Shown here one piece after another: positions 6,246 through 26,488 of a stretch of 40,791 bases of DNA; positions within the stretch are counted from its first letter, which is position 1, and every line of letters begins with the position of its first letter. The notes beneath the pieces were generated by a model that made no database searches, was not told where the DNA came from, and saw only the letters and a list, made by a program, of their open reading frames with translations. The position numbers and the translations under genes were made by a program. The stretch comes from Candidatus Moranbacteria bacterium RIFCSPLOWO2_12_FULL_48_12 (GTDB lineage Bacteria > Patescibacteriota > Minisyncoccia > Moranbacterales > UBA1568): positions 1 through 40,791 of the forward strand of contig MFSB01000008.1 in NCBI GenBank assembly GCA_001784735.1, in the 5' to 3' direction.

Positions 6246-6255
6246 TTACTCTGGA

Positions 6256-8142: not shown

Positions 8143-8290
8143 TGTCAAAATCAAAATTTCAAATGTTAAATTCCTGCCTGTCGGCAGACAGGAAACTCAA
8201 AGCTCCAATGATTGAAAGATATTTTTAAACATTCAGATTTTAGTCATTGATTTGGTATTTGTCATTTGAGTTTTAACATTTACAGCGTGG
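8142..8290. repeat. Intergenic AATGTCAAA/TTTGACATT-type module with central GC hairpin
   Basis: Contains AATGTCAAAA, CAAATGTTAAA, the hairpin CCTGTC-GGCA-GACAGG (8177..8192), then the inverted ATTTGTCATTTGAG and TTTTAACATTT. Same architecture as 31113..31232. Confidence 0.5.
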
Positions 8291-8355
8291 TGGTTGACAC
8301 CTGCTGAACAATGATATAAAATAAGTAGGTTAAATAAGTCGATATTTCTATGGAT

Positions 8356-8667
8356 ATGCTCGCGATTATCAGAACTGGCGGAAAGCAGTACAAGGTTTCC
8401 GAGGGGCAAAAAGTGAAGATTGAGAAGCTCGATCAGGCAGTCGGCGACACCGTGCAGTTCGAGACGCTCTTTGTCGGCGATGAGAAGGCTGTCCATATCG
8501 GTGCGCCGGTTTTGGAGAAGGCAGTCGTGGAAGGCAAGGTGCTCGCGCAGGAACGCCATGACAAAGTCAAAGGCATCAAGCACAAGGCCAAGAAGCGCTA
8601 CCTCGTCCGCTATGGCCATCGCCAAGCGTACACGGAAGTGGAGATTACTAAAATCTCAGTAAAATAA
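8356..8667 (+). CDS. rplU: 50S ribosomal protein L21
   Basis: MLAIIRTGGKQYKVSEGQKVKIEKL is a typical L21 N-terminus. An alternative ATG lies at 8350. Confidence 0.95.
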   Translation: MLAIIRTGGKQYKVSEGQKVKIEKLDQAVGDTVQFETLFVGDEKAVHIGAPVLEKAVVEGKVLAQERHDKVKGIKHKAKKRYLVRYGHRQAYTEVEITKISVK

Positions 8668-8684
8668 TTCCAGCAAAAAATAAG

Positions 8685-8708
8685 TCCCGCCTCAAGCGGG
8701 ATTTTTTT
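8685..8708 (+). terminator. Rho-independent terminator after rplU
   Basis: TCCCGC-CTCAA-GCGGGA stem-loop followed by a T-run (8702..8708). Confidence 0.8.
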
Positions 8709-8740
8709 ATCTGTTTATTTCCAAACAAATGAATTATTCA

Positions 8741-8762
8741 CTTATCGACGGCCGTCGATAAG
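8741..8762. repeat. 22-bp perfect palindrome CTTATCGACGGCCGTCGATAAG
   Basis: Read directly. It is fully self-complementary with no loop, in a non-coding tract. Confidence 0.9.
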
Positions 8763-9316
8763 TAAATAAGAGTTAATTAACGTTTCGGGAGGCTGAAAAC
8801 TTCATCTCGTGGTACATACAAGCCAAGAAAGGAGCTTTTATTGCAACGTCGTTTAGTTTAATCTCAATTAGGGTCTAATTCCCCGCCGCTTGCGGCGAGT
8901 ATCAAAGACAAATTTGTCAAAGATACCTCGCGGCTTGCCGCGAGGAGTATTCATTGCATAAAACAGCACTTCTCTGGCTTCATAGAAAGAAAATTAAAAA
9001 AATCTAGCCTCCCATAAATACCATTAAACCGTAAATAACACCATCATTGATACTTCTTCCAGTTCAAACTGATGTATTCTATTCTAGTATTTTGCCAGCC
9101 TCGACGGCTAGGCGGGCAAAAAACTAGAATGCTTGCAAATGAGACATTGTTTTAGAATGTGGTTCTTGTCTTTTACTTGCATTCTAATTCTCACGGCTGT
9201 TAGTTTCAGAGCGCATTATATTATTTTTCAAATATACTGTCTAAAAATTCAAAGACCCGGGGAGAGAAGATTCATCTCCGCGGGCCCCTCCAAGTTTTGC
9301 TTTTTCTTACAATCCC

Positions 9317-9562
9317 TCAAATACGAGCGAGGCAGTAACGCAGTACCTCTGATATGTTGGATGGGTAAGCCGTTTCTTTTGGAAAGTCTCCCAGTCCCTT
9401 CCTGCCTTCCCGGAATCCCTGGAATGCTCTCGGTACAGGGAACGGGTCAACATGGGTATGTTCCGCGTTCATCATTTGAACCATCAAAAGGTAGACTTTT
9501 GCTTCGTCGGACAGCGGTGGCAACGATGCGAGAGGCGGTTCCATTATGAAATTGCTACGCAT
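9317..9562 (-). CDS. Hypothetical small protein (81 aa), possibly co-transcribed with the FabZ-like gene
   Basis: The ORF starts 12 nt after the stop of the 9575..10072 ORF on the same strand. A terminator-like hairpin plus T-run follows on the minus strand near 9255..9290. No recognisable motif. Confidence 0.3.
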   Translation of the reverse strand: MRSNFIMEPPLASLPPLSDEAKVYLLMVQMMNAEHTHVDPFPVPRAFQGFREGRKGLGDFPKETAYPSNISEVLRYCLARI

Positions 9563-9574
9563 CTCATTTTCTTC

Positions 9575-10072
9575 TTATAGGCTGGTTTGGTTAATCTTGA
9601 TTCGTTCAAGCATACGTCGGGGAAAACGAGTTCCTGTAAAATGTACAGTCGCCACGGATTTACCGTACTGGTTAAAAACCTCACCACGAAAAGTGAATCT
9701 CCGTTTGGTTTGATCGATTAGCTCAACCTCACAGGTTAAGCCATCGCCAGGCATAGCCGGTAATGCCACTTCAATCATTGATGTGTTGAGAATCGGAAAA
9801 ACCTCTCGATCTGTGAACATCATTAGCACGGCTCCGGTCAGATGCACGAACTCTGCGATGAGAACTCCCGGCATAATCCCGAAGTGATCCTGAATCCTTG
9901 TATCGTCAACGCACACTGAGAAATATCCACTGGCGCGAGTGCTTTCATGAATGTGCACCTTGTGAATTACGAGTGCACCACCACGATGTGGCAGGATTTG
10001 CTCAATCTCGACCATACCCAGGTCGACGTGAATAGCTTCCGGTGCAACCAATGCTACAGCGGGTACATTCAT
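9575..10072 (-). CDS. FabZ/FabA-like hotdog-fold dehydratase
   Basis: The motifs IEQILPHRGGALVIHKV and DHFGIMPGVLIAEFVHLTG match the (3R)-hydroxyacyl-ACP dehydratase pattern ILPHR..P..GHFP..P.MPGVL..E. GAGAAGGA lies upstream of the ATG. Confidence 0.75.
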   Translation of the reverse strand: MNVPAVALVAPEAIHVDLGMVEIEQILPHRGGALVIHKVHIHESTRASGYFSVCVDDTRIQDHFGIMPGVLIAEFVHLTGAVLMMFTDREVFPILNTSMIEVALPAMPGDGLTCEVELIDQTKRRFTFRGEVFNQYGKSVATVHFTGTRFPRRMLERIKINQTSL

Positions 10073-10151
10073 TGTGTATCCTTCTCAAAAATTGGCTGAA
10101 ACAAAAAACGAGCTTAATGCTCGTCACTTAAGGAACTAACTAATGTCCGTA

Positions 10152-10748
10152 TTATACCAGTTCCTTGCGATTTGTCAAGGAAGAGACGAGGGTGAGTTCG
10201 TCGGCGTATTCGATGTCGCCGCCGGTGGCCATGCCGCGTCCGATCCGGGTAACTTTGATCTTGCAGGGTTCCAGCTTTTTTTTCAGATAGAGAGCGGTCA
10301 GGTCACCTTCGGTGGTGGGATTGGTCGCCAGGATAACTTCCTTTATGCCGTCATTTGCTACCCGATGGAGGAGCTCGTTGATACGGAGAGTATCACTGTT
10401 GTCGCTCTTGCCGCTTTCCAAGAGGCCTCCCAGAACGTGGTAGAGACCAAGGTAGGCGCCAGTACGTTCGATAGCGATGACATCGAGTGGTTCTTCCACG
10501 AGGCAGAGGGTGTCAGTTATACGTTTGGTATCGGCGCAGATGGAGCAGAGTTCGCCTTCGGCGATATGGAAACAGCGTGTGCAGCTTTTCAGGTGATGGA
10601 GCGCTTCGAGGCTCTCCGCAAAGCTCTGGAGTTTCTCCTCGTCCTGTTTGAAGAGGTAGAGTACGATGCGTTCAGCCATTTTGGGACCGACGGAGGGGAG
10701 AGTGGAAAAATGTGCTATCAGGGATTGGAAGACCTTTGGATAATGCAT
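10152..10748 (-). CDS. recR: Recombination protein RecR
   Basis: LIAHFSTLPSVGPKMAERIVLYL (HhH), the Cys4 zinc finger CTRCFHIAEGELCSIC, and the Toprim block LCLVEEPLDVIAIERTG. Confidence 0.95.
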   Translation of the reverse strand: MHYPKVFQSLIAHFSTLPSVGPKMAERIVLYLFKQDEEKLQSFAESLEALHHLKSCTRCFHIAEGELCSICADTKRITDTLCLVEEPLDVIAIERTGAYLGLYHVLGGLLESGKSDNSDTLRINELLHRVANDGIKEVILATNPTTEGDLTALYLKKKLEPCKIKVTRIGRGMATGGDIEYADELTLVSSLTNRKELV

Positions 10749-10756
10749 TTGAAGAG

Positions 10757-10850
10757 GAATTATGAATTACGAATTATGAATAAAGAAAAGATAAACAATA
10801 AAAACCCGGTAAGTAAATCCTGATTCTTGATTCAAGATTCCTGATTCATT
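10757..10850. repeat. Heptamer-periodic imperfect hairpin element filling the dnaB-recR spacer
   Basis: Left arm GAATTATGAATTACGAATTATGAAT and right arm AATCCTGATTCTTGATTCAAGATTCCTGATTCATT are largely complementary with wobble pairs and mismatches. Confidence 0.55.
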
Positions 10851-12209
10851 TTAGGAGTGTATCTTCTCCAGCGACTTGAATGTGGTGGAGTTTTCCTCGA
10901 AATACAACTGCACTTTGCCGATGGGGCCGTTTCTGTGTTTGGCGACGATGATATCGGCGATGTTCTTGTTCGGGGTATCCGGCTTGACGCGATCTTCCCG
11001 GTAGAGGAACATCACCACGTCGGCATCCTGTTCGATCGAACCGGATTCGCGCAAATCGGAGAGCCGCGGTATCTGATCCGGACGGGATTCCACGGCTCGA
11101 GATAATTGCGAGAGGGCCATTATCGGGATATTTAATTCGCGAGCCAATTGTTTCAATCCGCGGGAAATTTCTGAGATTTCCTGGACGCGATTATCGCTTT
11201 GCCGGTTGCTGCGGCCTTCCATCAGCTGGAGATAGTCGACGATGATGAGCCCCAGATTGTGCTCGGCCTGGAGACGTCTGGCCATCGTCCGCATTTCCAT
11301 GATATTGAGCGAGCCCGAGTCATCGATGAAAATAGGGGCTTCAGAAAGGACGCCCATAGCGTCAGAAATACGCTCAAAGTCGTTATTCGAGCCTTCGCTT
11401 GAGAGTTTGCCGGTTCGCAAGCGCCAGAGGTCGACGCCGGCTTGGGCGGCGATCATCCGATCCACGAGCTGATCCGAGGACATTTCCAGAGAGAATATCC
11501 CCACCGGTACCTTGGAGTGAACGCCGATCTGCCGGGCGATGTCGAGGGCGAGGGCAGTTTTGCCCACCGATGGGCGGGCGGCCAGGATAAGGAGATCGGA
11601 TTTCTGGAGCCCGGCCAAGAGATTGTCGATATCCGGGAAAAAAGTCTGAACGCCGCGGAAGGCGTGATCGCTCTTGTGCAGTTCATCGATGCGGTTGAAA
11701 GCAATTTCGAGAATGGATTTGATGGGGACAAAATCCTGCTTGATATATTTTTGGGAAACGGCAAAGACTTTCTGTTCAGCTTCGTCAAGGATTTTTTGGA
11801 CGTCTTCGGATTCATCATAGCCCATTTCGACGATATCGCTCGCGGCGCTGATGAGGCGGCGGAGCAGGACTTTTTTCTGGACCACTTTGGCATAGTGGAC
11901 GACGTTCGAAGCGGAAGGAACAGAATTGACCAGCGAGGCGAGGTAGTTCGATCCGCCCACTTTTTCCAGCTGGCTCTGTTCTTCCAGCTTGTTGGCCAGC
12001 GACAAGACGTCGATCGGCTCGCGGTCTTCGTAGAGGGCGAGCATCGTTTCGTAAATCACGTTGTGGTCGTCTTTGTAGAAGTCACCCACTTTGAGCAGAT
12101 CGGCGATTTTGATGACAGCATCTTTGTCCAGCATCAAAGAGCCGAGCACCGAAGTTTCAGCTTCGAGATTATGCGGGGGAACGCGGAGATGATCGGTGGC
12201 TTTGGCCAT
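10851..12209 (-). CDS. dnaB: Replicative DNA helicase DnaB
   Basis: 452 aa. N-terminal PPHNLEAETSVLGSLML, Walker A ARPSVGKTALALD, and the IIVDYLQLM and SQLSRAVE blocks. Confidence 0.97.
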   Translation of the reverse strand: MAKATDHLRVPPHNLEAETSVLGSLMLDKDAVIKIADLLKVGDFYKDDHNVIYETMLALYEDREPIDVLSLANKLEEQSQLEKVGGSNYLASLVNSVPSASNVVHYAKVVQKKVLLRRLISAASDIVEMGYDESEDVQKILDEAEQKVFAVSQKYIKQDFVPIKSILEIAFNRIDELHKSDHAFRGVQTFFPDIDNLLAGLQKSDLLILAARPSVGKTALALDIARQIGVHSKVPVGIFSLEMSSDQLVDRMIAAQAGVDLWRLRTGKLSSEGSNNDFERISDAMGVLSEAPIFIDDSGSLNIMEMRTMARRLQAEHNLGLIIVDYLQLMEGRSNRQSDNRVQEISEISRGLKQLARELNIPIMALSQLSRAVESRPDQIPRLSDLRESGSIEQDADVVMFLYREDRVKPDTPNKNIADIIVAKHRNGPIGKVQLYFEENSTTFKSLEKIHS

Positions 12210-12252
12210 TATCTGTAAGAATTAAAAGTTGTATCTATAATTATTTACTCTT

Positions 12253-12332
12253 TGTCATCTCGACTGAGTCTTCGAATGGAGGGATCTGTTTTCCAAAAAT
12301 AAATAGATTCCTCAACGGGCTCGGAATGACAC
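12253..12332. repeat. TGTCAT..GGAATGACA-family intergenic element
   Basis: TGTCATCTCGACTGAGTCTTCGAATGGAGGGATC ... GGGCTCGGAATGACAC. Related copies are at 15285, 18480..18614 and 35268..35348. Confidence 0.55.
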
Positions 12333-12447
12333 CTTCTTCTTACGCCTTATCTTTTCAAATGTGTTTGAACGAACGTAAGCTTTATTATACTGAACGTCGA
12401 GAAGAAGTCCAATGTTTCTGTTGTATAAAATGTGACTAACTCGTGGG

Positions 12448-12476
12448 TTGACAAAACAGAATTTATGGTGTATAAT
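12448..12476 (+). promoter_or_regulatory. Perfect sigma70-type consensus TTGACA-N17-TATAAT, oriented antisense into the cysS 3' end
   Basis: TTGACA at 12448..12453, a 17-nt spacer, and TATAAT at 12471..12476. It lies inside the loop of the ACAGAAT/ATTCTGT hairpin that probably terminates cysS on the other strand. Confidence 0.35.
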
Positions 12477-12498
12477 AAACATTCTGTAGTGTCTTTTT

Positions 12499-13947
12499 TT
12501 AAGATTTCTTCAAGCGATAGCCTCCGGGAATATCCTCCGCTTTGTAGCCGCGTTTTTCAATGAGATCACGCAGGCGATCAGATTCGGCGAAATCTTTCGT
12601 TTGGCGAGCTGCCTCGCGCGCTTTGGCCATATCTTCTACGTCTGTTGGAATAATTTCTTTTTCCCTAGTCAGACCGAAGAACAAGAATATCTTTTCGAAA
12701 ACCAGTCCGAGAACCGCAGCGTCTACCGTTTCTTTTTGATCGAGCAACATATTTATTTTTTTTATCAATTCGAAGGTGACGGCAAGCGCCAGAGGAGTGT
12801 TCAGATCATCGCGCATCGCCTCTCTCACTTTTTTCAAGTACTCTTCTCCTCCGAAAGCACTTGCCCCGTGATTCGCTCCAACGGATTTTACGGAGCCAGG
12901 TATATTTTGCTCGCCTTTAACGCTGTTCAAACGCTCCACAATGCTGTACAGAACTTCTTTGTTTTTCTTTGCCTGCTCCAGAGCCTCCCAGGTGAAATTC
13001 ATCTGACTGCGATAGTGGGCGCCGATATAGAGCATGCGCAGATCCATCGGAGAAAAGCCTTTTTTCAAGATATCTTCCAATATATAGAAGTTGCCTTTGG
13101 ATTTACCCATCTTTTCACCATCCACGAGGAGGTGGCGAGTATGAAGCCAGTAACGGACAAAAGGCTTACCGGTAACACCTTCGGACTGGACGATTTCCGC
13201 CTCATGATGGGGAAAAATATTATCTTCACCGCCGGTGTGGATGTCCAGCGTATCGCCGAGGTATTCCATGCTCATCGCGCTGCATTCGATGTGCCAGCCG
13301 GGATAGCCTTCGCTCCACGGCGATGGCCAGTGCATCAGGTGATCTTTGGGGGCTTTGAGCCACAGAGCAAAATCCCAAGGATGTTTCTTATCGGGATGCT
13401 CTTCGAGACGGGCGCCTACTTTCAAATTTTCCAAAGTATTGCCGGAGAGCCTGCCGTACTGGGGAAAAGAAGTGACATCGAGAAACACATTGCCATTTTT
13501 TTCATACGCATAACCTTTCTTGATGAGTTCCTTGATCAGCTTGATCATCTGCTTGATGTGGGCGGTGGCGCGGGGAAAGTAATGGGCTGGTAAAATATTG
13601 AGCGCTTTTTCCATCCGCAAGAAATATTCTTCATAGAAGCGGGTAATTTCTTCAGGGCTTTTCTTTTCCGCTCTGGCCTTTTTTTCAATCTTGTCTTCTC
13701 CACTATCGGCTTGACCAACTTCGTCTTCCGTTAAATGACCAACATCGGTGATGTTCTTAATCATCCGTACCTCAAAACCCGCGTTCTCGAGAACGCGGCG
13801 CAGCGTATCGGCAAACACGTAGGCGCGGATATTGCCGATTTGCATATATCCGTAGACTGTCGGGCCGCAAACATACATCCCGACTTTGCCGGGATGGAGA
13901 GGTTCAAAGACTTCTTTTTTCTTGGTAAGTGTATTATAGAATTTCAT
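12499..13947 (-). CDS. cysS: Cysteine--tRNA ligase
   Basis: [39 protein letters not shown]-type region and KMGKSKGN (KMSKS). Confidence 0.97.
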
Positions 13948-13995
13948 AGTTGTCGTTATCGTAATTCACGATTCACTATTCTTAATTCCGCCTTG

Positions 13996-14905
13996 CTAGA
14001 GCCACTTCTTGATTCTGAAAACCGTGATAGTGATGAGGGAGAGGAATATCATCAGGCTGGTGTGGATCCAGAAAGCATGCGGATTGTGTCCGAATGGGAT
14101 CTGGGCGCTCATCGCGAGCATGTTGGAATAGACAGTCATGGGGAGGAGGATAGCGGAGAAAATGGTGAGCACTTTCATCGTCAGTTCCAGCTTGTTGGAG
14201 AGGAGGGAATTGTTGGTGGCTTCGAGCGCCTCGATGGTTTCTTTCTGGCTCTCCAGGATGTTCCACAGGCGGACGTTGGTGCCGATCATATCCTGGAAAT
14301 AGATCTTCGTTTCCGCCGGGATGAACGGGTGATCCTTCTGGAGGATGGATTCAAGGATGGAGCGCTGGGGTTTCAGGGTGCGGCGGAAGTTGAGGATGTC
14401 GCGCTTCAAGACGGAGATCTCGAAAACCATCTCCTTTTCTTTTTCCGCGAAGACCTGATTTTCGATAAAATCCAGCTTTTGGCTGATATGGTTGAGGCGC
14501 GGGAAGCAGGAATTGAGAAGGAGGGCGATGATATGGTGGAGGAGGTGGGCCGGAGTAGTTTCCATGGACAGTCGGCGCTTGCCTTCGCTCTTTTGCAGAT
14601 CCTCGAAAAATTTAGTGAGCTGATAGATGCTTTGGCGGTGGCTGGTGATGAGATGGCGGTCGGTCAGGATGATATCCAGTTCGCCCGAATACGTCGTCCG
14701 CTTCTCCGTGTCGAAGAGGGGGATATGGATGGAAAGGAACAGGCAGTTATCGTACTGCACGACTTTGGGCTGATAGGTGGGCGTGATGAGCTCCTATATC
14801 GCCAGCGGATGGATATTGAAATTTTCCTGGAGAAAAGTGATGTCATCGTTCTCCGGGTTCTCAAAATCGATCCACGTTATTTTTTTGTGTTTGAGGATTT
14901 TCATT
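13996..14905 (-). pseudogene. CorA-like Mg2+/Co2+ transporter gene, disrupted
   Basis: The C-terminal part (ORF 13996..14760) has the CorA two-TM tail, but YGMN is replaced by YSNM. The upstream N-terminus MKILKHKK.. (ATG 14905) is out of frame by one nt in an A8 run (14880..14887). An in-frame TAG (14794..14796) follows IHPLAI. Confidence 0.75.
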
Positions 14906-14917
14906 TTTATTTGTGGC

Positions 14918-14954
14918 CTCCTCCACTTTCCAAGGGGAGGGTAGGGAGGGGTTT
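14918..14954. repeat. CCTCC..TTTCCAAGGGGAGGGTNGGGAGGGGTT hairpin repeat, copy 1
   Basis: Near-identical to 17474..17510. Contains the hairpin core CCTCC(A/C)CTT-TCC-AAGGGGAGG. Confidence 0.7.
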
Positions 14955-15024
14955 GAAATTTACTTTAGTATATCAAGCAAAAGTATAATTGACAAAACCC
15001 TGTGGGGAGGACTATGCTCTCAGT

Positions 15025-15261
15025 ATGTTGAAAAAGTTTGTTCTTGGGTTTATACGGTTATACCAAAAAACCATCTCTTTTGAACACGGGTTCATCGGGA
15101 TGCTGTTCGGGGAACGGTTTTGCCGTTTTCATCCGACCTGCAGCGCCTATACGTACGAGGCCATAGAGCGCTATGGTGTCGCGCGCGGAAGTTTTTTGGG
15201 GCTGAAGCGTATTTTTCGTTGTCATCCGTGGAATGATGGGGGGTATGATCCGGTGCCCTGA
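15025..15261 (+). CDS. yidD: Membrane protein insertion efficiency factor YidD
   Basis: [49 protein letters not shown]. The conserved part starts at ATG 15025. Confidence 0.9.
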
Positions 15262-15284
15262 GTCAACTTAGATCGTTTGTATTT

Positions 15285-15314
15285 TGTCATTCCCGCGAAG
15301 GCGGGAATCCAGGA
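15285..15314. repeat. TGTCATTCCCGC-GAAG-GCGGGAATCCAGGA hairpin repeat
   Basis: Same family as 35268..35296 and 35319..35348 (GTCATTCC..GGAATCCAG). Confidence 0.65.
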
Positions 15315-15486
15315 TTTCAGATTAGTGATTTTGTAATATATTTAGTTGGATTCAGTGTTGGAATCTATTAAAAGAGTCTAGAGAAGAATACAGACTTTCT
15401 GAATAGATTCTAACCAGTCCGTTAACAATCAGTCAGTTGGTATGATTGTGACGGTTTTTTGTCTTTTTTATGATGGAGGAACGAAG

Positions 15487-15651
15487 ATGACGAAGAAAGT
15501 TCAGAAAAGAATGCCGCCGGTGGAAGAAGCTTTCGCTGGCATTGAAAATTGGCCGCCCAGGCATGTCCACACAAGGGGCGTCCGTACGTCACTGAGAACT
15601 GGGATCGTTTCCGCGAAAAAGATTTCTCCATCAACCGCAGTCAGGAAATAG
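15487..15651 (+). CDS. Small ORF s1 (54 aa), SD-led
   Basis: GGAGGA lies 6 nt upstream of ATG 15487. The N-terminal half looks protein-like and the C-terminal half is R/S/T-rich. An alternative frame (15549..15896) competes with it. Confidence 0.35.
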   Translation: MTKKVQKRMPPVEEAFAGIENWPPRHVHTRGVRTSLRTGIVSAKKISPSTAVRK

Positions 15652-15661
15652 GGAGGAGCTC

Positions 15662-15862
15662 ATGCCAGATACAAAGCGCGGACCACGTGCTCCAAACGGA
15701 CGAGTTGTTTGTCTGGTGTTTCTCTCGATTGTTGCTGAAAAGGGAGAAAGCCAGCTTGGTTCAGACGGAAAGCTTCGCAGAATCACAGTGCAGGTGGCAA
15801 GACAAATGCATTATCGCGTGGGTAAGTGTTGCGACGAGCGTTGTAGGAGGAAGTGCCAATGA
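15662..15862 (+). CDS. Small ORF s2 (66 aa) with C-terminal Cys cluster GKCCDERCRRKCQ
   Basis: GGGAGGAG overlaps the s1 stop and lies a few nt upstream of ATG 15662. The stop overlaps the s3 start (ATGA). Confidence 0.45.
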   Translation: MPDTKRGPRAPNGRVVCLVFLSIVAEKGESQLGSDGKLRRITVQVARQMHYRVGKCCDERCRRKCQ

Positions 15863-16053
15863 CTCAAACAGCGACCGGAACAGCAAGGGCCGTTAAGCAG
15901 GTTCCTTGTAAACAGATCCCTCAATTTTCTTCAGTTTCGGAATCCGTTGCCATTGCCAAGTTTTGGCAGGTGATAGCAGGAAAAAATTCCGCGGAGCGAA
16001 AAGTCTGCAGGGATTGCGAATATTGCCCTTTTAAAACGGGGCATCCGATTTAA
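15859..16053 (+). CDS. Small ORF s3 (64 aa) with C-terminal CRDCEYC motif
   Basis: AGGAGG (15845..15850) lies 8 nt upstream of ATG 15859. ATGA overlap with s2. Confidence 0.45.
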   Translation: MTQTATGTARAVKQVPCKQIPQFSSVSESVAIAKFWQVIAGKNSAERKVCRDCEYCPFKTGHPI

Positions 16054-16115
16054 TTACGTAGTAAGAATACGGTGCTGGTAAGCAATCTGGTGCCGTAGCA
16101 AGGAGAGGGGAAGGT

Positions 16116-16145
16116 ATGGAGCTTCCAGCATATCAATGTTGTTAA
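16116..16145 (+). CDS. Mini-ORF (9 aa, MELPAYQCC), SD-led
   Basis: AGGAGAGGGG (16101..16110) lies 5 nt upstream of the ATG. Too short to judge as coding. Confidence 0.2.
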   Translation: MELPAYQCC

Positions 16146-16161
16146 TCAAGAAGGGGGTGCT

Positions 16162-16458
16162 ATGTCGTCACAAATAGAAATACCCACGTTTGTCCCGCAA
16201 CTTGGGGAGCGTGTTGGAAGATCGGACCTGCGACCTATGCAGGTGTTTCAACGGTCTGAAACGGTGCCGGGCTGGATGTGTCTGCACGCTGATGAGTCCA
16301 GGGTTCCGGAGCAAGTGGCAGCTACGGTGCACTACGATTCGGAGTCTTCCTTGTGCACCAGTACGTGTGCGTGCAAAGGGCCGTGCCAAGAATTGCACAT
16401 ACGGCTCAAGGGACAGGGCACACAGCAGAAGGACAAAAAGAAGGGGAGAAAACACTAG
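16162..16458 (+). CDS. Small ORF s4 (98 aa) with Cys/Ser/Thr cluster SLCTSTCACKGPC and a Lys-rich tail
   Basis: AAGGGGG lies upstream of ATG 16162. Third-position G/T preference resembles that of host genes. A competing frame (16190..16489) is also Cys-rich. Confidence 0.4.
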   Translation: MSSQIEIPTFVPQLGERVGRSDLRPMQVFQRSETVPGWMCLHADESRVPEQVAATVHYDSESSLCTSTCACKGPCQELHIRLKGQGTQQKDKKKGRKH

Positions 16459-16577
16459 CGCGTATAACATCGAAAAATTTATAAACTGATCGAGCCAATG
16501 GGCTCACACGTGGCAACGGCCACATAAGAATAGGGGTGCACAGAACACGTGACACCCCTTTCAAATGCTTTTGAGGG

Positions 16578-16604
16578 TTAGCACTCTACTTGACAGAGTG
16601 CCAA
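16578..16604. promoter_or_regulatory. CIRCE operator (HrcA binding site)
   Basis: TTAGCACTC-N9-GAGTGCCAA against the consensus TTAGCACTC-N9-GAGTGCTAA (one mismatch), directly upstream of hrcA. Confidence 0.9.
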
Positions 16605-16618
16605 TAGGTATTTATAAT
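16590..16618 (+). promoter_or_regulatory. Consensus sigma70-type promoter of the hrcA-grpE-dnaK cluster
   Basis: TTGACA (16590..16595, inside the CIRCE spacer), exactly 17 nt, then TATAAT (16613..16618). Confidence 0.8.
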
Positions 16619-16648
16619 GAAACTGGGATTCAATATATTGATAAATCT

Positions 16649-16684
16649 GTACACTATTTTCCGCGACCGCGGAAAATAGTGTAC
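16649..16684. promoter_or_regulatory. 36-nt palindrome (17-nt perfect arms) in the hrcA leader
   Basis: GTACACTATTTTCCGCG-AC-CGCGGAAAATAGTGTAC, checked base by base. It lies between the promoter and the GTG start at 16697. Confidence 0.85.
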
Positions 16685-16696
16685 ATCGAGTAGAGT

Positions 16697-17461
16697 GTGA
16701 ATAATAGGCAAAAACAAGTTCTCTCAGCTATTGTGGAGCTCTATACGGAGACGGCTTTGCCCGTAGGTTCCCAAGTGCTTTTGAAACACTCCGATTTTCC
16801 GGTCAGTGCGGCGACTCTCAGGAGCGATATGGTGACGTTGGAAGAGGAAGGTTTTCTCTACCAGCCGCACGTGTCCGCCGGACGTATTCCGACTGATCAA
16901 GGCTATCGTATCTACGTCGAGGAAATGATGGGAGAAGAGACGCTTTCGCGCCGCGATCAGGAACGGTTGCAGAAAGAGCTCCTGATGCTCCGTGCCAAGC
17001 ACGTCCGTCTGGGGCGGACGACGGCCAAACTTCTCTCCGTTCTCTCCGGCAATTTGGCGGTCTCGAGTACCGGCGCCAACGATTTTTATGATTTCGGGAT
17101 GAAGGAACTTATCGAGAAGCCGGAGTTTCGTGAGATAGATGAATTGTGCCGTTTGGTGGAAACGCTCGATACGCTGGATGAAAAATTGGATGGCCTGATG
17201 GTGAAATTGAAAGACGGAGAAACGCACATATACATCGGCAAAGAAAATCCCATCGCGGGTATCGATAATTGTTCCATGATCGTGGCGCCGTACAAGAATC
17301 GCGAAGGGGAGAAAGGGATGCTGGCTATTATCGGACCGAAACGGATGGATTATGCCAAGAACAAATCCCTCATCGAGTATATGAAGAAGCTTTTGTCTTC
17401 GTCATTGGCTGTTGTGATAATTGTTGGGACGACAGGAATCATTTCAATAATTAAAGTATAA
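16697..17461 (+). CDS. hrcA: Heat-inducible transcription repressor HrcA, short form (254 aa)
   Basis: N-terminal RQKQVLSAIVELYTETALPVGSQVL is a typical HrcA wHTH. It sits next to CIRCE and upstream of grpE/dnaK. The C-terminus ends in a hydrophobic stretch LAVVIIVGTTGIISII. Confidence 0.88.
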   Translation: MNNRQKQVLSAIVELYTETALPVGSQVLLKHSDFPVSAATLRSDMVTLEEEGFLYQPHVSAGRIPTDQGYRIYVEEMMGEETLSRRDQERLQKELLMLRAKHVRLGRTTAKLLSVLSGNLAVSSTGANDFYDFGMKELIEKPEFREIDELCRLVETLDTLDEKLDGLMVKLKDGETHIYIGKENPIAGIDNCSMIVAPYKNREGEKGMLAIIGPKRMDYAKNKSLIEYMKKLLSSSLAVVIIVGTTGIISIIKV

Positions 17462-17473
17462 TTGTTCCCATTT

Positions 17474-17510
17474 CCTCCTCCCCTTTCCAAGGGGAGGGTG
17501 GGGAGGGGTT
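17474..17510. repeat. CCTCC..TTTCCAAGGGGAGGGTGGGGAGGGGTT hairpin repeat, copy 2
   Basis: Near-identical to 14918..14954. Lies between hrcA and the grpE fusion ORF. Confidence 0.7.
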
Positions 17511-17518
17511 AAAAAAAT

Positions 17519-18472
17519 ATGACACCAAAGAAGAATCACGAATCACGAATCACGAATCTCGGAAAACATGAACAATTCGAGATAAGCCAGAAAGTCATCT
17601 TGTACAATCCGCAAGACAAGAAATTTCTTATTACAAAAGATGAGAGACCTTCAGAAGCTTCTGAAAAATATGGTGTGTGGGAAGTACCAGGTGGTCGGAT
17701 GAATGAAGGAGAAAAAACAGAGCAAGCTATCGCTCGTGAAATCAAGGAAGAATTGGGAGAAGATGTCCAATACGAAATCATCAATGCTAATCTGGGACAC
17801 ACTATACACTATTTTACCGAGCAACCGAGTCGAGCCGTCCTTTTTGTACTAGCAAAATACAAGGGTGGAGAGATCGCATTGAGCGAAGAAAATAGCGAAT
17901 TTTACTGGAATACCATTGAGGAAGTCGAGAGCAGCAAAGAGTATTTTCCATGGTTGAAAGGGGTCATTAGGAACGCAGCGAATTATCTAAGAAATGAAGA
18001 ATTATTGAATGATCTGAAGCGATGCCAAGCGGACTTCGAGAATTATAAGAAGCGCCAGGCGGAAACGCAGAAAATGCTCGGGGGATATCTCATAGAAAAA
18101 CTGGTGCTGGATATCGTCCCGGTGTTGGATAATTTCCGCTCCGCGACGCTCCACGTCCCGCCCGAAGAGAAAGACAGTCCGTGGGTCATTGGCATCCAGT
18201 ATATCGAGAAACAACTAGAGACGGTATTGACTGACAATGGCATTCAGACGATAGAAGTAAAAGAGGGCGAAGAGTTTGATCCGAAGATACATGAGGCCGT
18301 GAGCAATGCAGAACCAACAACCAACAACCTACAACCTACAACAGAAGAAGATGCTTCGGAGGCGGGCAGTCAGTCGTCAGTCGTCAGTCGTCAGTCGATA
18401 GTCAAGGTGATCCAGAAAGGCTATAAGTTCGGTAATCGAGTGATACGACCGGCGAAAGTGACAGTAAAGTAA
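17519..18472 (+). CDS. grpE: Nudix hydrolase domain fused to nucleotide exchange factor GrpE
   Basis: One uninterrupted 317-aa ORF. A complete Nudix box GRMNEGEKTEQAIAREIKEELGE (Gx5Ex7REUxEExG) lies in the N-terminal half. The C-terminal half carries GrpE blocks ADFENYKKR, VLDNF, HEAV and IQKGYKFGNRVIRPAKVTV. Confidence 0.85.
   Translation: MTPKKNHESRITNLGKHEQFEISQKVILYNPQDKKFLITKDERPSEASEKYGVWEVPGGRMNEGEKTEQAIAREIKEELGEDVQYEIINANLGHTIHYFTEQPSRAVLFVLAKYKGGEIALSEENSEFYWNTIEEVESSKEYFPWLKGVIRNAANYLRNEELLNDLKRCQADFENYKKRQAETQKMLGGYLIEKLVLDIVPVLDNFRSATLHVPPEEKDSPWVIGIQYIEKQLETVLTDNGIQTIEVKEGEEFDPKIHEAVSNAEPTTNNLQPTTEEDASEAGSQSSVVSRQSIVKVIQKGYKFGNRVIRPAKVTVK
18311..18403. repeat. Heptamer-periodic low-complexity element lying in frame inside the grpE coding sequence
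   Basis: (ACAACCT)n ... (CAGTCGT)n spans 93 nt, or 31 codons. It resembles the reverse complement of the intergenic element at 3776..3860. It encodes EPTTNNLQPTTEEDASEAGSQSSVVSRQS between the conserved HEAV and IVKVIQKGY blocks. Confidence 0.6.
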
Positions 18473-18479
18473 CCTTTAC

Positions 18480-18614
18480 TGTCATCCCGGGCTTGACCCG
18501 GGATTCAGGTTGTCACCCTGAGCGAAGTCGAAGGGTCTCAGAACAATAAGACAAGATTCCTGCGCCACCGCTAAAGCTTTAGCGACACGCGGTCGACAGG
18601 CTCGGAATGACAAG
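18480..18614. repeat. Composite TGTCAT..GGAATGACA-family element
   Basis: TGTCATCCCGGGCTTGACCCGGGATTCAGG, TTGTCACCCTGAGCGAAGTCGAAGGGTCTCAG, the 16-nt palindrome CGCTAAAGCTTTAGCG (18569..18584), and CAGGCTCGGAATGACAAG. Confidence 0.6.
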
Positions 18615-18808
18615 AGAAAAATAATTTCATTTAATAAGTTAATAAATAATATGTCGACCCCGCATAGACTTTCGAAGAACGCATCAGTAAGTGGACGTTG
18701 TGTTCACGGATACGCCTTCGGCTGTATTGTTGTGAATGTCGATTAAATAATTAATAAAGTTTTGCGGGGTGCTCATAGTTGTAGCTCCTCGCAGACTCAG
18801 AGACAACT

Positions 18809-20767
18809 ATGGCAAAGATACTCGGCATAGACTTGGGGACAACCAACTCCGCGATGGCGTTCGTGGAAGGCGGGACTCCCAACATCATCGAGAACAAGGA
18901 AGGCAATCGTACCACACCGTCGATGGTGGCGATATCGAAAACCGGCGAGCGTCTGGTGGGCTTACTCGCCAAGCGCCAGGGTGTTACCAATCCAGAGAAT
19001 ACACTGTTTTCCGTGAAGCGCCTCATCGGGCGGCATTTCAACGACGAGGAAGTCCAGCGCGACAAGAAAACGCTTCCCTACAAGATTCTTCAGGCCGGCG
19101 AAGGCGTGAAGATCGTGATGGGTGGCAAGGAATACACGCCGCAGGAAGCTTCTGCGATGATTCTCGGCAAACTGAAGGCCGACGCAGAAGAGAAGCTGGG
19201 TGAGAAGATCACCGACGCGGTCATTACCGTACCGGCCTATTTCGACGACTCCCAGCGCAAGGCCACCAAAGAAGCGGGTGAAATCGCCGGATTCAACGTG
19301 CGTCGCATCATCAACGAACCGACGGCCGCCGCTCTGGCCTACGGTTTCAACAAGAAGAAAGATGAGAAAATTGCAGTTTATGATCTGGGTGGCGGAACGT
19401 TCGATATTTCCATCTTGGAAGTAGCCGAAGACACGGTCGAAGTGAAGTCGACCAACGGGGATACGCACTTGGGCGGTGATGACTTCGACCAGCGGATCAT
19501 CCACTGGATACTCGATGAATTCAAGAAACAGGAAGGGATCGATTTGAGCAAAGATCCACTGGCGCTCCAACGCATCAAGGAATCTGCCGAGAAAGCCAAG
19601 ATCGAACTCTCGACTGCCAACGAAACGGAAATCAATCAGCCATTCATCACCGCGGATGCCAACGGGCCGAAGCACTTGCTTATCAAGATGTCGCGGGCCA
19701 AGTTGGAAGAGCTGGTAGGCGATCTGGTCGAGGCGACATTTGGCCCAGTGAAAAAAGCCCTGGCCGATGCGAAACTGGATGTGAAAGATATCCATGAGAT
19801 CGTCTTGGTCGGCGGGATGACTCGTATGCCGCTGGTTCTTTCCAGCGTAGAAAAATTCTTCGGCAAGAAAGCCAATATTACCGTCAATCCGGATGAGGTG
19901 GTGGCGCTTGGTGCCGCTATCCAGGGCGGGGTACTGGAAGGTTCTGTGAAAGATGTGCTTCTCTTGGACGTGACGCCGCTCACATTCGGTATCGAGACTT
20001 TGGGAGGCGTGCGGACGCCGCTTATCGATCGCAATACGACGGTACCTGTATCTCGCTCTCAGGTATTTTCCACTGCCGCTGATAATCAACCATCGGTGCA
20101 GATCCACGTACTCCAGGGTGAGCGTGAGATGGCCTCTGACAATAAATCTCTTGGTCAATTCATCTTAGACGGCATTCCACCATCGCCGCGCGGTATCCCG
20201 CAGGTGGAGGTGACGTTTGACATCGATGCTTCGGGAATTCTTTCTGTGACGGCCAAAGATAAGGCGACGAATAAATCCCAATCTATCCGTATCGAATCAT
20301 CCACCGGACTTTCCAAAGATGAGATCGAGCGGATGAAGAAGGATGCCGAGATGCACGCCGATGAGGACAAGCGCAAGAAAGAACTCATCGAAGCGCGCAA
20401 TATGGCCGACAGCCTTTCCTACACGACCGAGAAGTCGATGAAAGATGCCGGTGACAAGTTGACCGCTGATGAGAAGAAGCCGGTGGAGGAAGCCATCACT
20501 GAGCTCAACAAAGTGAAGAACGGCGATGACTTGGAAGCTATCAAGAAGGCCACCGAGAATCTCTCCACCGCCGCACAAAAGATTGGTGAGAAACTCTATA
20601 AAGCGGCTCAAGAAGCCGAGAAGACCAAAGCAGGCGAAACTAAGCCAGCCGATGGCAATACTGGTACTGCCGAAGCCCCGAAAGAGGCCGAAACAGAGCC
20701 TGCTTCGGCTTCAGACGAGCCGGCTAAACCTGAAGGTGATAAACCAGCAGACGAGCCGAAAAAGTAA
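18809..20767 (+). CDS. dnaK: Molecular chaperone DnaK (Hsp70)
   Basis: [22 protein letters not shown].., [22 protein letters not shown]. 652 aa. Confidence 0.98.
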
Positions 20768-20778
20768 GGAGTATATTA

Positions 20779-20808
20779 AGAGCGGAGGTTTTCCTCCGCT
20801 CTTATTTG
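20779..20808 (+). terminator. Rho-independent terminator after dnaK
   Basis: AGAGCGGAGG-TTTT-CCTCCGCTCT (10-bp stem) followed by TATTTG. Confidence 0.85.
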
Positions 20809-20819
20809 AAAATAATTAT

Positions 20820-21386
20820 ATGAAAATGATTCCTTCCGTCACAAATCGTGAACTTGATGAAACTTTTATTTATCAGGGACTATCATGGCAACCAAGAATT
20901 ACATCAAGGGGAGATCTGGGTATCACTGGACCATTTTGCAAGAGATGTAACGTAAGTTTAGCAGGTGGTGTGGTTAAATGTTGGAACTGTAATGCCGATT
21001 ACTCAAAAATTTTAGATAGCGACTTAGTGGAACTTCGAAGTAAAGCTCATAAGATATATGAAGCGAATGCTCGTTCAAAATACCCAGTTATAAACTTTGA
21101 CATCCCACCAACATCACTTAGTCATAGTACAACTGAGGACGAGAATTTTTTTGTGGGATATAAATTTGGGCAAGAAAAGGGTAGAAAACAATTACACATT
21201 TGGGTTGGTGAGAGGAAAAAAGATCAAAGTAATAAGGATAAAGTTCAATTAGTTATTGATGTTGATAAAGAAGAGTTCAGACATGACCAAACTAATAAAT
21301 TTCCTGGTGAAATAATTGCTAACGCCAAGATTGTTTTCAAAAAATCCAGTACAGATATAAACTATGAAAAAATAGTTGAAGGATGA
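20820..21386 (+). CDS. Hypothetical zinc-ribbon protein (188 aa), AT-rich
   Basis: ATG 20820 lies after the dnaK terminator. The longer track ORF from 20526 overlaps dnaK in another frame. Motif CKRC-x11-CWNC. Visibly more AT-rich than the flanking genes. Confidence 0.6.
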   Translation: MKMIPSVTNRELDETFIYQGLSWQPRITSRGDLGITGPFCKRCNVSLAGGVVKCWNCNADYSKILDSDLVELRSKAHKIYEANARSKYPVINFDIPPTSLSHSTTEDENFFVGYKFGQEKGRKQLHIWVGERKKDQSNKDKVQLVIDVDKEEFRHDQTNKFPGEIIANAKIVFKKSSTDINYEKIVEG

Positions 21387-22871: not shown

Positions 22872-22955
22872 ATGCTTTGGACGGATGAACAGATAAAGAA
22901 TCATAAGGAGATGGCGGATGTTTTGGAGGGGATTGTCCGAGAATTTTTTTGTTAA
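22872..22955 (+). pseudogene. Fragment B: duplicated 5' end of the M24 peptidase gene (27 codons then stop), truncated at a REP hairpin
   Basis: MLWTDEQIKNHKEMADVLEGIVREFFC*. About 60 of the first 66 nt are identical to 26530... The stop is immediately followed by REP copy 1. Confidence 0.8.
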
Positions 22956-22976
22956 TTTGGAAGCCTTGCTTCCAAA
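22956..22976. repeat. REP hairpin copy 1 (TTTGGAAGC-CTT-GCTTCCAAA)
   Basis: 9-bp perfect stem with a 3-nt loop. Confidence 0.9.
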
Positions 22977-22993
22977 ATCTTCTAAATGGTTAA

Positions 22994-23032
22994 AAAAATG
23001 CAGCGGTCCTGGCAGAATGTTTCCCGCCAGGG
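22994..23032. repeat. 39-nt hairpin repeat, copy 2 (see 21399..21437)
   Basis: AAAAATGCAGCGGTCCTGGCAGAATGTTTCCCGCCAGGG. Lies downstream of the minus-strand ORF 23118..23780. Confidence 0.7.
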
Positions 23033-23117
23033 CCTGTTTCTCCTCCTTTTGTCGTTGATTGATACTATCCGAGAAAATCGTATTTCTTATAGGAAGGTCA
23101 AGTCCTCAGACACCCGA

Positions 23118-23780
23118 TCAGAGCAGCGCTGTGATGGTAGCGTCTGAAATGCACTTTTCCCATGCTTTCCGGCATGAGGGAAGCACAGTTTTCGGGATAA
23201 TGAAACGCCTGAGTCTTTTTTGCACTTCATCGGATGGCACGGAACGATTCCTGGCCAGCCACTTCGCTACCCGTTTGGGGATGGTGATCCGGGTAGTTTC
23301 GAAGTCTGGCCAGCATGGGATGCTGGTCGTCTCCTTCACGGTAACCAGAATAACGGACCACCGAGAATGCCAGATTTTTGGCGTGCCTTCCAAGTTGTAG
23401 AGAAAGCTATCCCGCTCCAAGAAAAGCTCGATTTGCCTATCGCTATCCACAAGGACTGTCCGGCTCTCCACCGTGTGTGGCGGCGTAATGCTGTCGACTT
23501 CCCGTACCATGTCACGGTAGCGCAAAGGCATCACTTTTTTGGTATATGTGAGAGAGGGCACGACGGTAAGCAAGTGCCTGAAAACATCCAGGTAGTAGAA
23601 TGCTACGGCCTTTGCGGTCGCCTCCCCGAAGTCATACTGGTTAGTTCTGGCTTCACTTCTGCGGCTATTTTTCACGGTTCGATCTCCTGTAAAAGGACGA
23701 AGCAGATCCGGGTGAACCGGCATCTGGTTACTTCGATGAAGTAACGGCTCATTATAGGTCGAGAGAGTAATAAATGTCAA
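23118..23780 (-). CDS. Hypothetical protein (about 200-220 aa)
   Basis: Longest ORF in a segment where both strands are open. The track start is TTG 23780 and the first ATG is at 23723 (MPVHPDLL..). No family recognised. Confidence 0.5.
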   Translation of the reverse strand: MTFITLSTYNEPLLHRSNQMPVHPDLLRPFTGDRTVKNSRRSEARTNQYDFGEATAKAVAFYYLDVFRHLLTVVPSLTYTKKVMPLRYRDMVREVDSITPPHTVESRTVLVDSDRQIELFLERDSFLYNLEGTPKIWHSRWSVILVTVKETTSIPCWPDFETTRITIPKRVAKWLARNRSVPSDEVQKRLRRFIIPKTVLPSCRKAWEKCISDATITALL

Positions 23781-23800
23781 CCATGAATCTGGTGATGTAA

Positions 23801-23821
23801 TTTGGAAGCCTTGCTTCTAAA
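23801..23821. repeat. REP hairpin copy 2 (one mismatch: ..GCTTCTAAA)
   Basis: TTTGGAAGCCTTGCTTCTAAA. Confidence 0.85.
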
Positions 23822-23915
23822 TTTACTTCAAGCAGGGAATTAGCCGCTCTTTGCATATCCTCTGGCATATTCTATACTTGGGGCAGGAGCTTTAAGCATT
23901 AATTTATAAAAGTCT

Positions 23916-24863: not shown

Positions 24864-24894
24864 AAAATCATACTGACTGGGGTAAATAAGAGAA

Positions 24895-24915
24895 TTTGGA
24901 AGCAAGGCTTCCAAA
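24895..24915. repeat. REP hairpin copy 3 (TTTGGAAGC-AAG-GCTTCCAAA)
   Basis: Perfect copy, opposite loop orientation to copies 1, 2 and 4. Confidence 0.9.
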
Positions 24916-24951
24916 CTTTTAGATAGCAGAATGGCGTAAAGAAAGAAATAT

Positions 24952-25633: not shown

Positions 25634-25751
25634 AGAGTTTTCCAAAGCTGATTCGAGGTGTATTGTTGTATTTTGTAAGCTTTTTGAAATAGAAACCTGT
25701 TTTGGATGGGAAAAACCGCTTGTTGCAATTGCCAAGCGTGCAAGAACATGA

Positions 25752-25772
25752 TTTGGAAGCCTTGCTTCCAAA
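25752..25772. repeat. REP hairpin copy 4 (CTT loop)
   Basis: TTTGGAAGCCTTGCTTCCAAA, 37 nt upstream of the transposase ORF. Confidence 0.9.
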
Positions 25773-26483: not shown

Positions 26484-26488
26484 AGTTA

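Follow-up and report, generated by a model that had tools for sequence, protein, structure and literature searches.

A variable array of small four-cysteine protein genes, putatively metal-binding, between yidD and hrcA in Moranbacteria

We examined the region between yidD and hrcA in a stretch of 40,791 nucleotides (nt) from Candidatus Moranbacteria bacterium RIFCSPLOWO2_12_FULL_48_12 (contig MFSB01000008.1), hereafter the window, whose first letter is position 1. The gene order at this locus is cysS (-), corA (-), yidD (+, ending at 15261), a region of small open reading frames (ORFs), hrcA (16697-17461), a NUDIX-GrpE fusion and dnaK. A reading of the letters alone (the sequence-only reading) had stated that the gap between yidD and hrcA holds no ORF longer than 115 amino acids (aa), which is borne out, the longest being 115 aa, and had proposed a train of five small ORFs here, each led by a Shine-Dalgarno (SD) site and several ending in clusters of cysteine. 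Four same-strand small ORFs, s1 (54 aa), s2 (66 aa), s3 (64 aa) and s5 (98 aa), lie within 15487-16458. On sequence criteria s2 and s5 belong to an undescribed, Moranbacteria-specific family of mini-proteins with four invariant Cys (Cys4), and the reading we favour, with some reserve, is that the region carries a small operon of Moranbacteria Cys4 metal-binding (Fe-S or Zn) mini-proteins in a variable array. The features of the region are the following.

15422-15446, + strand: upstream block TTAACAATCAGTCAGTTGGTATGAT, a putative promoter/operator; TGGTATGAT resembles an extended -10.
15487-15651, + strand: s1, 54 aa, basic and Cys-free, with GGAGG at 15475-79, 7 nt upstream of the ATG; a probable gene.
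15662-15862, + strand: s2, a 66-aa Cys4 member with invariant C17, C57, C61 and C65, and GGAGG 5 nt upstream.
15859-16053, + strand: s3, 64 aa, with GGAGG at 15846-50, 8 nt upstream, and a 1+3 arrangement of Cys (VPC-x32-CRDCEYC).
16054-16161, + strand: leader before s5, with hairpins at 16069-16096 and 16109-16126; it holds s4.
16116-16145, + strand: s4, 9 codons, non-genic.
16162-16458, + strand: s5, a 98-aa Cys4 member with C40, then CTSTCACKGPC and a Lys-rich tail, and a weaker GGGGG-type site.
16492-16562, + strand: 3' untranslated region (UTR) with three hairpins, the last (16533-16562, GGGGTG...CACCCC, then TTTC) resembling an intrinsic terminator.
16578-16618, + strand: hrcA control, with a CIRCE element (controlling inverted repeat of chaperone expression) at 16578-16604 (1 mismatch) overlapping a sigma-70 promoter at 16590-16618.

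The comparison set consisted of the hrcA loci of 63 species representatives, mostly Moranbacteria; the closest genomic relatives of the window's HrcA are Moranbacteria metagenome-assembled genomes at 90% identity or less. As in the window, hrcA is preceded by yidD in 44 of the 63 recovered loci, and in these 44 Moranbacteria species 319-1699 nt separate the two genes; the longer gaps carry trains of small + strand ORFs. We scanned for a pattern made of a hydrophobic [VI]-x-Cys, 15-60 residues, and C-x1-3-C-x1-6-C close to the C-terminus. The Cys-cluster C-termini quoted by the sequence-only reading are all present, and the 1+3 pattern is beyond chance: it occurs in 54 of the 162 small + strand ORFs of the gaps, as against 7 of 1581 ORFs in the flanks (Fisher p = 5e-52) and 1 of 121 ORFs on the minus strand of the gaps (Fisher p = 3e-14). 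By this strict pattern at least one member is found in 29 of the 44 species (none in 15 loci, one in 11, two in 12 and three in 6), and copy number correlates with gap length (r = 0.72).

Alignments of 45-47 members contain exactly four invariant columns, all of them Cys, which correspond to C17, C57, C61 and C65 of s2. Conserved non-Cys positions include V or I two residues before the first Cys (38/45), an Ala (39/45) followed by Arg, a Gly turn, an [IVL]-[PS] strand and an H/Y-Y/F pair. The core of about 45 residues runs from a [VI]-x-Cys strand through a Gly turn, an [IVL]-[PS] strand and an A-R...H-Y helix to the triad C-x2-3-C-x2-5-C. Spacing within the triad varies among the 54 members: it is 2/5 in 16, 2/2 in 13, 3/3 in 10 and 2/3 in 8. 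Exactly four Cys (1+3) are present in 28 of the 54 and five in 16. Members are 52-102 aa long (median about 70) and hydrophilic (median grand average of hydropathicity, GRAVY, -0.48), and their N-termini are the most variable part; 26 of the 54 have an isoelectric point (pI) above 8, and Lys/Arg-rich tails occur at the N- or C-terminus.

An independent family hidden Markov model (HMM) was built without sequences from the window or from L010, its nearest variant haplotype, and was run on 414 window ORFs. Its best match is s2 (E = 1.9e-7), followed by s5 (E = 5.8e-5), and it also recognises a 62-aa ORF of L010 (E = 7.9e-5). In other words, s2 and s5 show everything by which the family is defined, namely the pattern [VI]-x-C...A-[RK]...C-x2-3-C-x2-5-C, a location between yidD and CIRCE-hrcA and recognition by the HMM, while s3 shows the pattern and the location only. 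Of the searches that the sequence-only reading had proposed as a check, tblastn recovers s2 and the HMM recovers s2 and s5, but not s3. Members obtained, independently of hrcA, by a profile search of a database of 5.8 billion proteins (P0004, P0011 and P0015) all occupy the slot cysS-corA-yidD-[x]-hrcA-grpE-dnaK. A HMMER search against 1.84 billion representatives gave 12 matches, of which one is a repeat artefact and 11 are small proteins, made up of those of the window itself, homologues already in the input and three additional ones of the same type. Array members occur across lineages with HrcA identity as low as 64%, and no family member was found at the hrcA loci of the other Patescibacteria or the Firmicutes examined.

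Comparison of the members with Pfam, NCBIfam, PHROGs, PADLOC and PDB sequences gave matches at chance level only, and the window's small ORFs have no Pfam match in any frame. A set of "nanobody" matches in PDB is meaningless and comes from a YYCAR-like string, AEIYCARA. A pattern scan of metagenomes for new cassettes returned the same strain and one chance match only. A second small-protein type was also seen in the gap (L021 2687-3019, L031 3436-3738, L060 3281-3637 and L014 794-1075); these proteins are 93-118 aa long, carry 2+2 Cys (CxxxxC...CxxxC, zinc-ribbon-like) and have no Pfam match, so that the slot gathers mini-proteins of more than one kind.

It is very probable, on comparative grounds, that these sequences form a coding family. 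Nine pairs of orthologues from different species have ratios of nonsynonymous to synonymous substitution (dN/dS) of 0.09-0.33, with 16-105 substitutions, and the combination of low dN/dS and saturated synonymous sites indicates a protein-coding family under purifying selection; this was the selection check that the sequence-only reading had named, and it came out in favour of coding. In the case of s2, ORFs in the same slot of L012 (a different species from the window, with HrcA 90% identical) and of L059 share 43% identity with it (tblastn E = 5e-10 and 4e-9), with about 0.85 of synonymous sites differing (pS, saturated) and about 0.37 of nonsynonymous sites (pN). The s2 protein has a pI of 10.1, and its tryptic peptides include ITVQVAR and VVCLVFLSIVAEK. 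The s5 protein, which ends in KDKKKGRKH, is 94% identical to P0001. L010 is the sole comparison for the dN/dS of the window's s1 and s5. Against it, s5 gives 0.34 in its own frame versus 1.35 and 0.60 in the other + frames (11 substitutions), and nucleotide conservation drops sharply directly after the s5 stop codon. Alternative frames had been reported as open, and two do run across s5 (99 aa on the + strand, 100 aa on the - strand); neither is backed by the family profile, and the + strand alternative also has the worse dN/dS.

We regard s1 as a Cys-free companion ORF that is probably a gene. It is called by gene callers on contigs in ENA, and compared with L010 its own frame has a dN/dS of 0.36, the lowest of the three + frames, from 10 substitutions in total. 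Of five isolated changes, four are third-position changes, and a stop codon is retained (TAG to TAA). L012 has a positional analogue of s1 with an identical SD and start context and an AFAGI motif, while the protein of this first ORF of L012 shows no significant similarity to s1 (E about 1.5). An alternative frame of 115 aa covers s1 and s2 together; in L011 it runs on into the 62-aa ORF and is called as one gene. Its dN/dS of 0.96 versus 0.36 for the s1 frame makes it the less likely frame on the 10 substitutions available. Judging by its Cys pattern and position, s3 is probably a divergent family member and a gene; its homologues are found only within the window's own strain. For s4, the ATG reads AAG in L010 and L011 though the neighbouring 100 nt are about 92% conserved. 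The earlier proposal of real small protein genes hence stands for s2 and s5 as members of a conserved family, extends to s1 and s3 as probable genes on evidence weaker than that for s2 and s5, and fails for s4.

The translation signals of the array are unusual for this genome. The claim of five SD-led starts holds for s1, s2 and s3, which have GGAGG, and less well for s5 with its GGGGG-type site; the start of s4 leads no gene. On the + strand of the 40.8 kb there are 10 sites of the form GGAGG-N4-9-ATG, and three of these belong to s1, s2 and s3, while only about 2 of the 29 long ORFs of the window have an SD-like site, in agreement with the earlier remark that most housekeeping genes here lack one. 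Across the comparison set an SD lies upstream of 52 of 54 family starts and of 4 of 44 hrcA starts, a biased contrast because the choice of starts favoured SD-led ones; the unbiased evidence consists of the window's own sites only. The stop codon of s1 (TAG, 15649-51) overlaps the SD site of s2, GGGAGGAG, and the ATG of s3 at 15859 overlaps the stop of s2 as ATGA, both as the sequence-only reading had described. Of 24 spacings between consecutive members, 18 lie between -10 and +32 nt, including four 4-nt overlaps, and such spacings are consistent with translational coupling.

The upstream block TTAACAATCAGTCAGTTGGTATGAT is near-invariant between the window and L012, with diverged flanks, and may be the promoter or operator of the small-ORF operon; a promoter-scan hit at 15446-15474 is not conserved in L012. 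The leader before s5 is about 92% identical to that of L010, with the changes in loops and both hairpins predicted in both sequences, and it could act in processing or stability or as a recombination flank. The 3' UTR has a fold z-score of -3.7 and is 91.5% identical to L012 as a block, and all three of its hairpins are retained in L010 with other stem sequences, for example GGGGCGC...GCGCCCC, that is, with compensatory changes. Since conserved terminator-like hairpins follow s5, the array is most likely a transcription unit of its own. Each of the 44 gaps contains one CIRCE, never more or fewer, and always between the array and hrcA, whose sigma-70 promoter is a consensus one (scan score 12/12); the region's downstream boundary is thus formed by the hrcA control elements. 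The operon would consist of the promoter-like block, s1, s2, s3, the structured spacer, s5 and the terminator (15.42-16.56 kb), and would have been inserted between yidD and the CIRCE-controlled hrcA-grpE-dnaK operon.

Comparison with the nearest haplotypes points to exchange within the array. In place of the 400 nt with s2 and s3, L010 and L011 have about 190 nt that encode another Cys4 ORF, of 62 aa, at the same SD and ATG position, while the tail of s1, the spacer and s5 are 89-95% identical to the window. Across the cassette L010 and L011 are themselves identical, their differences lying downstream of the hrcA -10. Two blocks of the window recur in L012, the 3' flank (16434-16622, 91.5%) and the 5' promoter/SD block (15392-15493), and the ORFs between them are other cassettes there; the s5 of the window is instead shared with L010. 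We followed the window segment 15557-16280 in the public runs X10 and X20. Window-type arrays (s2+s3) and L010-type arrays (with the joint 15650 to 16061) coexist in one groundwater sample at similar depth, and a third contig, from another run, combines single-nucleotide polymorphisms of the L010-like s1 tail with window-type s2 and s3 and is a recombinant. Two s5 alleles segregate among near-identical contigs. The locus behaves as a recombination hot spot whose cassettes are duplicated, lost and swapped, with conserved flanks on either side, leading to 0-3 or more copies per species.

Several repeated elements were observed around the array. A REP-like (repetitive extragenic palindromic) hairpin, GTCATTCCCGCGAAGGCGGGAATCCAGG, lies at 15286-15313 and again at 35319-35347, with related copies at 18473-18508 and 35261-35296. 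Assembler word depth over this hairpin stands at 3,000-21,000 in four public runs, as compared with about 5 over its flanks, which implies a sequence common to thousands of contigs in these communities, and the contigs of relatives break at this hairpin. A perfect 38-nt palindrome at 16648-16685, TGTACACTATTTTCCGCG-AC-CGCGGAAAATAGTGTACA, sits in the hrcA 5' UTR downstream of the -10. It is found in L010 with an altered centre and on other contigs of the same runs, and is absent from L011 and L012. It could be either a palindromic element that moves or a further hairpin with a regulatory function. A 42-nt direct repeat (90% identity, 14917-14958 and 17474-17515, CCTCCTCCACTTTCCAAGGGGAGGGTAGGGAGGGG...) brackets the yidD-array-hrcA block; each copy forms a hairpin and probably acts as a terminator. 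Farther away, a 22-nt palindrome, ATTTGGAAGCAAGGCTTCCAAA, is present in six copies within 22939-26513, around an IS200-like Y1 transposase ORF at 25809-26483 (PF01797, E = 1e-6), and the copies together with the transposase look like a system of the REP/RAYT type (REP-associated tyrosine transposase).

Among the neighbouring genes, grpE is fused to an N-terminal NUDIX domain (17519-18472, 317 aa, PF00293 + PF01025); in some relatives GrpE has no such fusion and is 177-191 aa long. A 417-aa open frame at 13735-14988 (+) runs antisense to corA (13996-14760, -, PF01544); it is called as a 331-aa gene on contig L001, has no Pfam match and is probably spurious. The same 40 kb as the array also encode thiol-redox functions, namely an MsrA-MsrB fusion (28506-29678) and a 351-aa DsbA-like protein of the thioredoxin fold (31749-32804).

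What might the array proteins do? In the reading we favour, s2, s5 and probably s3 would be paralogues whose four invariant Cys ligate one metal centre. Metal- or zinc-binding mini-proteins had been among the candidates of the sequence-only reading, and this candidate fits best with four invariant Cys over a domain of about 45 residues. That the four Cys ligate a metal seems fairly likely from the alignment; that the metal is an Fe-S cluster specifically is a tentative suggestion by analogy. Three close Cys and one remote Cys with variable spacing are more typical of cubane Fe-S sites, such as those of ferredoxins (CxxCxxC...C) and of WhiB (C-Xn-C-X2-C-X5-C; PMC6282962), and Zn(Cys)4 sites usually consist of two CxxC knuckles. 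The 1+3 layout and the variable spacing of the triad (CxxCxxxxxC, CxxCxxC, CxxxCxxxC) accordingly lead us to favour a [4Fe-4S]-type centre slightly over Zn(Cys)4. The proteins could act in the cytoplasm as binding or regulatory adaptors for a nucleic acid or protein partner, rather than as enzymes or secreted peptides, and the basic, unstructured-looking tails of s2, s5 and many members suggest binding to nucleic acids or to an acidic partner. A regulatory or adaptor role is nevertheless a rather unlikely one on our own estimate. The position next to hrcA may matter functionally or may do no more than mark a site permissive for recombination.

A number of observations weigh against a metal-binding operon of this kind. 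By codon usage the four ORFs score near 0, intermediate between coding (+0.40) and off-frame (-0.51) sequence, which makes the test uninformative, and for s2 a frame other than the annotated one scores best. Comparative support for s1 is weak, and s3 goes unrecognised by the independent family HMM (E = 0.94). A single RNA run comes from these samples; it is very small and contains none of the array sequence. AlphaFold, given 13-15 homologues each, yielded no usable fold, with a predicted local distance difference test (pLDDT) score of 47.5 for the s2 core and 37.9 for full s5. The 1+3 set of Cys is also compatible with disulfides or with a Zn site, and our data do not discriminate between these. 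Finally, the 15 of 44 species without a strict-pattern member indicate that the family is dispensable, which makes a core role in heat-shock control unlikely.

The alternative that retains most weight is that the array is cargo of genetic conflict, that is, a horizontally exchanged accessory array in a recombination hot spot, made up of phage-derived anti-defence or addiction-type mini-proteins or forming a defence island, with no functional link to hrcA. We hold this to be of low probability. It would account for the copy number of 0-3, for the cassettes swapped between conserved flanks and the coexisting haplotypes, for strong SD sites and an atypical codon usage unlike that of the host's housekeeping genes, and for the widely repeated REP-like elements at the borders. 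Yet every member found sits in one chromosomal slot across lineages with HrcA only 64% identical, which speaks for long vertical residence, and neither an integrase nor a transposase adjoins the array. The phage or plasmid remnant suggested by the sequence-only reading likewise found no backing: there is no significant match to PHROG or PADLOC (best E about 0.014) and no true match in IMG/VR. The one IMG/VR match, L078, lies on the opposite strand to a 288-aa phage ORF, with no + strand ORF covering the match, and was judged spurious. This explanation overlaps in part with an operon of metal-binding proteins, as conflict cargo could still consist of Cys4 metalloproteins.

It is also conceivable that the ORFs encode exported, disulfide-rich peptides of a bacteriocin- or signal-like kind, with their Cys in disulfides instead of a metal site. 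Small, Cys-rich and fast-evolving products are typical of secreted effectors, and the window does contain the DsbA-like thioredoxin gene (31749-32804). This idea appears improbable to us: on reading the sequences (no predictor was run) we saw neither a signal peptide nor a transmembrane segment, the N-termini are polar or basic, no exporter is encoded nearby, and the 16 of 54 members with five Cys, an odd number, fit a purely disulfide role poorly.

Very little, in our view, speaks for the option of ribosomally synthesized and post-translationally modified peptides (RiPPs), raised by the sequence-only reading, according to which the ORFs would be precursors of the SCIFF (six cysteines in forty-five residues)/ranthipeptide, sactipeptide or lanthipeptide type, with Cys-rich ends cross-linked by a maturase encoded elsewhere. 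The small ORFs, their tandem, diversifying copies and their C-terminal Cys clusters do recall such precursors, and one of 47 members has a weak match, below the cut-off, to TIGR04114, a Cys-rich radical-SAM target (E = 0.0066). No gene for a radical-SAM, LanM/LanB, YcaO, peptidase or exporter protein is present in the 40 kb window, however, nor among the Pfam-labelled called genes within 4 kb at the loci of six relatives, and the synteny that anchors the array across 44 loci is yidD-[array]-hrcA. A conserved leader is likewise missing, and conservation extends over a domain of about 45 residues that includes an Ala/Arg helix and, within a hydrophobic strand, a remote invariant Cys.

The notion that the region is non-coding, being a structured RNA or a decayed longer gene with accidental ORFs, is scarcely credible and for s2 and s5 close to refuted: several frames are open across s5, the 115-aa alternative covers s1 and s2, codon usage is atypical and flanking and internal hairpins are conserved, but conservation is at the protein level (dN/dS 0.09-0.33, synonymous sites saturated), nucleotide conservation ends at the s5 stop, the Cys enrichment is confined to one strand, a covariance-model search with Rfam 15 finds two tRNAs only in the window and chance-level scores at 15200-16750 (best 22.6 bits versus a gathering score of 66, E at least 0.6), and no longer homologous gene, decayed or not, occupies the gap of the 44 relatives.

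The Candidate Phyla Radiation (CPR) is rich in unannotated small genes, few of which have comparative support. Here, the slot directly upstream of the heat-shock operon of one lineage holds mini-proteins whose sequences are highly diverged and whose four Cys are constant; the constant elements across the Moranbacteria loci examined are the slot and the Cys4 family, and the cassettes turn over. The family is a candidate for a new type of small metal-binding, possibly Fe-S, protein. From its sequence signals the array would also be a case of expression that depends on SD sites and translational coupling, in a genome where SD sites otherwise play little part, and it offers a natural example of recombination-driven cassette turnover in very reduced genomes.

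Four kinds of known small proteins bear comparison with the Cys4 family. Zinc-finger mini-proteins, such as the C(P)XCG micro-proteins of haloarchaea, resemble the family in their very small size, in their frequent annotation as hypothetical proteins and in a conservation that is strong at four Cys only; zinc ribbons differ in having 2+2 CxxC knuckles, whereas the Cys4 family is 1+3, with no second knuckle at the first Cys. SCIFF and ranthipeptide precursors share with it short ORFs, a C-terminal run of Cys at a spacing of 2-3 residues and, sometimes, multiple copies. Cys4 members are longer (52-102 aa) and are variable at the N-terminus rather than in the core, they have no nearby maturase and no NCBIfam match above the cut-off, and their remote invariant Cys and hydrophobic strand imply a fold. 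Ferredoxin-type Fer4 domains resemble the family in combining three close Cys with one remote Cys, and the exact CxxCxxC occurs in 13 of the 54 members. None of the Fer4 families gives a match, the best score being that of Fer4_6 for one member (E = 0.49-0.92), and there is no CP at the canonical distance; the remote Cys lies N-terminal of the triad and not in a C-terminal CP, and the Cys4 proteins are mostly basic or neutral, with variable spacing.

Closest in layout are the WhiB-like (Wbl) proteins (PF02467; WhiB1 structures 5OAY and 6ONO), which are also small, with four invariant Cys in a 1+3 layout. Wbl proteins bind a [4Fe-4S] cluster through C-Xn-C-X2-C-X5-C, G[V/I]WGG being their only other universal feature, and the layout in WhiB1 is C9...C37-x2-C40-x5-C46 (PMC6282962). 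In our set, C-x2-C-x5-C is found in 16 of 54 members, several with CxxCP[AV]RxxC against CxxCPV in WhiB, and the spacing from the first to the second Cys is 24 residues in one hand-counted member versus 27 in WhiB1. Basic tails in some members and several paralogues per genome add to the likeness. The differences are equally clear: G[V/I]WGG is absent from all aligned members, many of which end 1-10 residues past the last Cys, the triad spacing that is fixed in Wbl proteins varies in the Cys4 family, and the Cys4 proteins occur in tandem arrays in one slot of CPR genomes while Wbl proteins belong to Actinobacteria and actinophages. The Pfam Whib model matches 2 of 45-47 members at E = 0.05-0.09 (13.7-14.2 bits versus a cut-off of 23.6), at the Cys triad only. 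Homology to Wbl proteins was rejected, since hhalign against WhiB1, WhiB and WhiB3 gives a probability of 3% and GVWGG is absent. By analogy, the family could still be a CPR counterpart of WhiB-like proteins, convergent or diverged beyond recognition, acting as [4Fe-4S] redox- or nitric oxide-sensing adaptors that bind the sigma factor of RNA polymerase or the HrcA/DnaK machinery and are maintained as an array in rapid diversification; we regard this as a long shot. If it were true, such Fe-S sensors or sigma/chaperone adaptors would extend to the CPR a type of regulator thought to be confined to Actinobacteria, and would equip these regulator-poor episymbionts with a module for sensing stress that can be tuned and that lies where the heat-shock operon begins.

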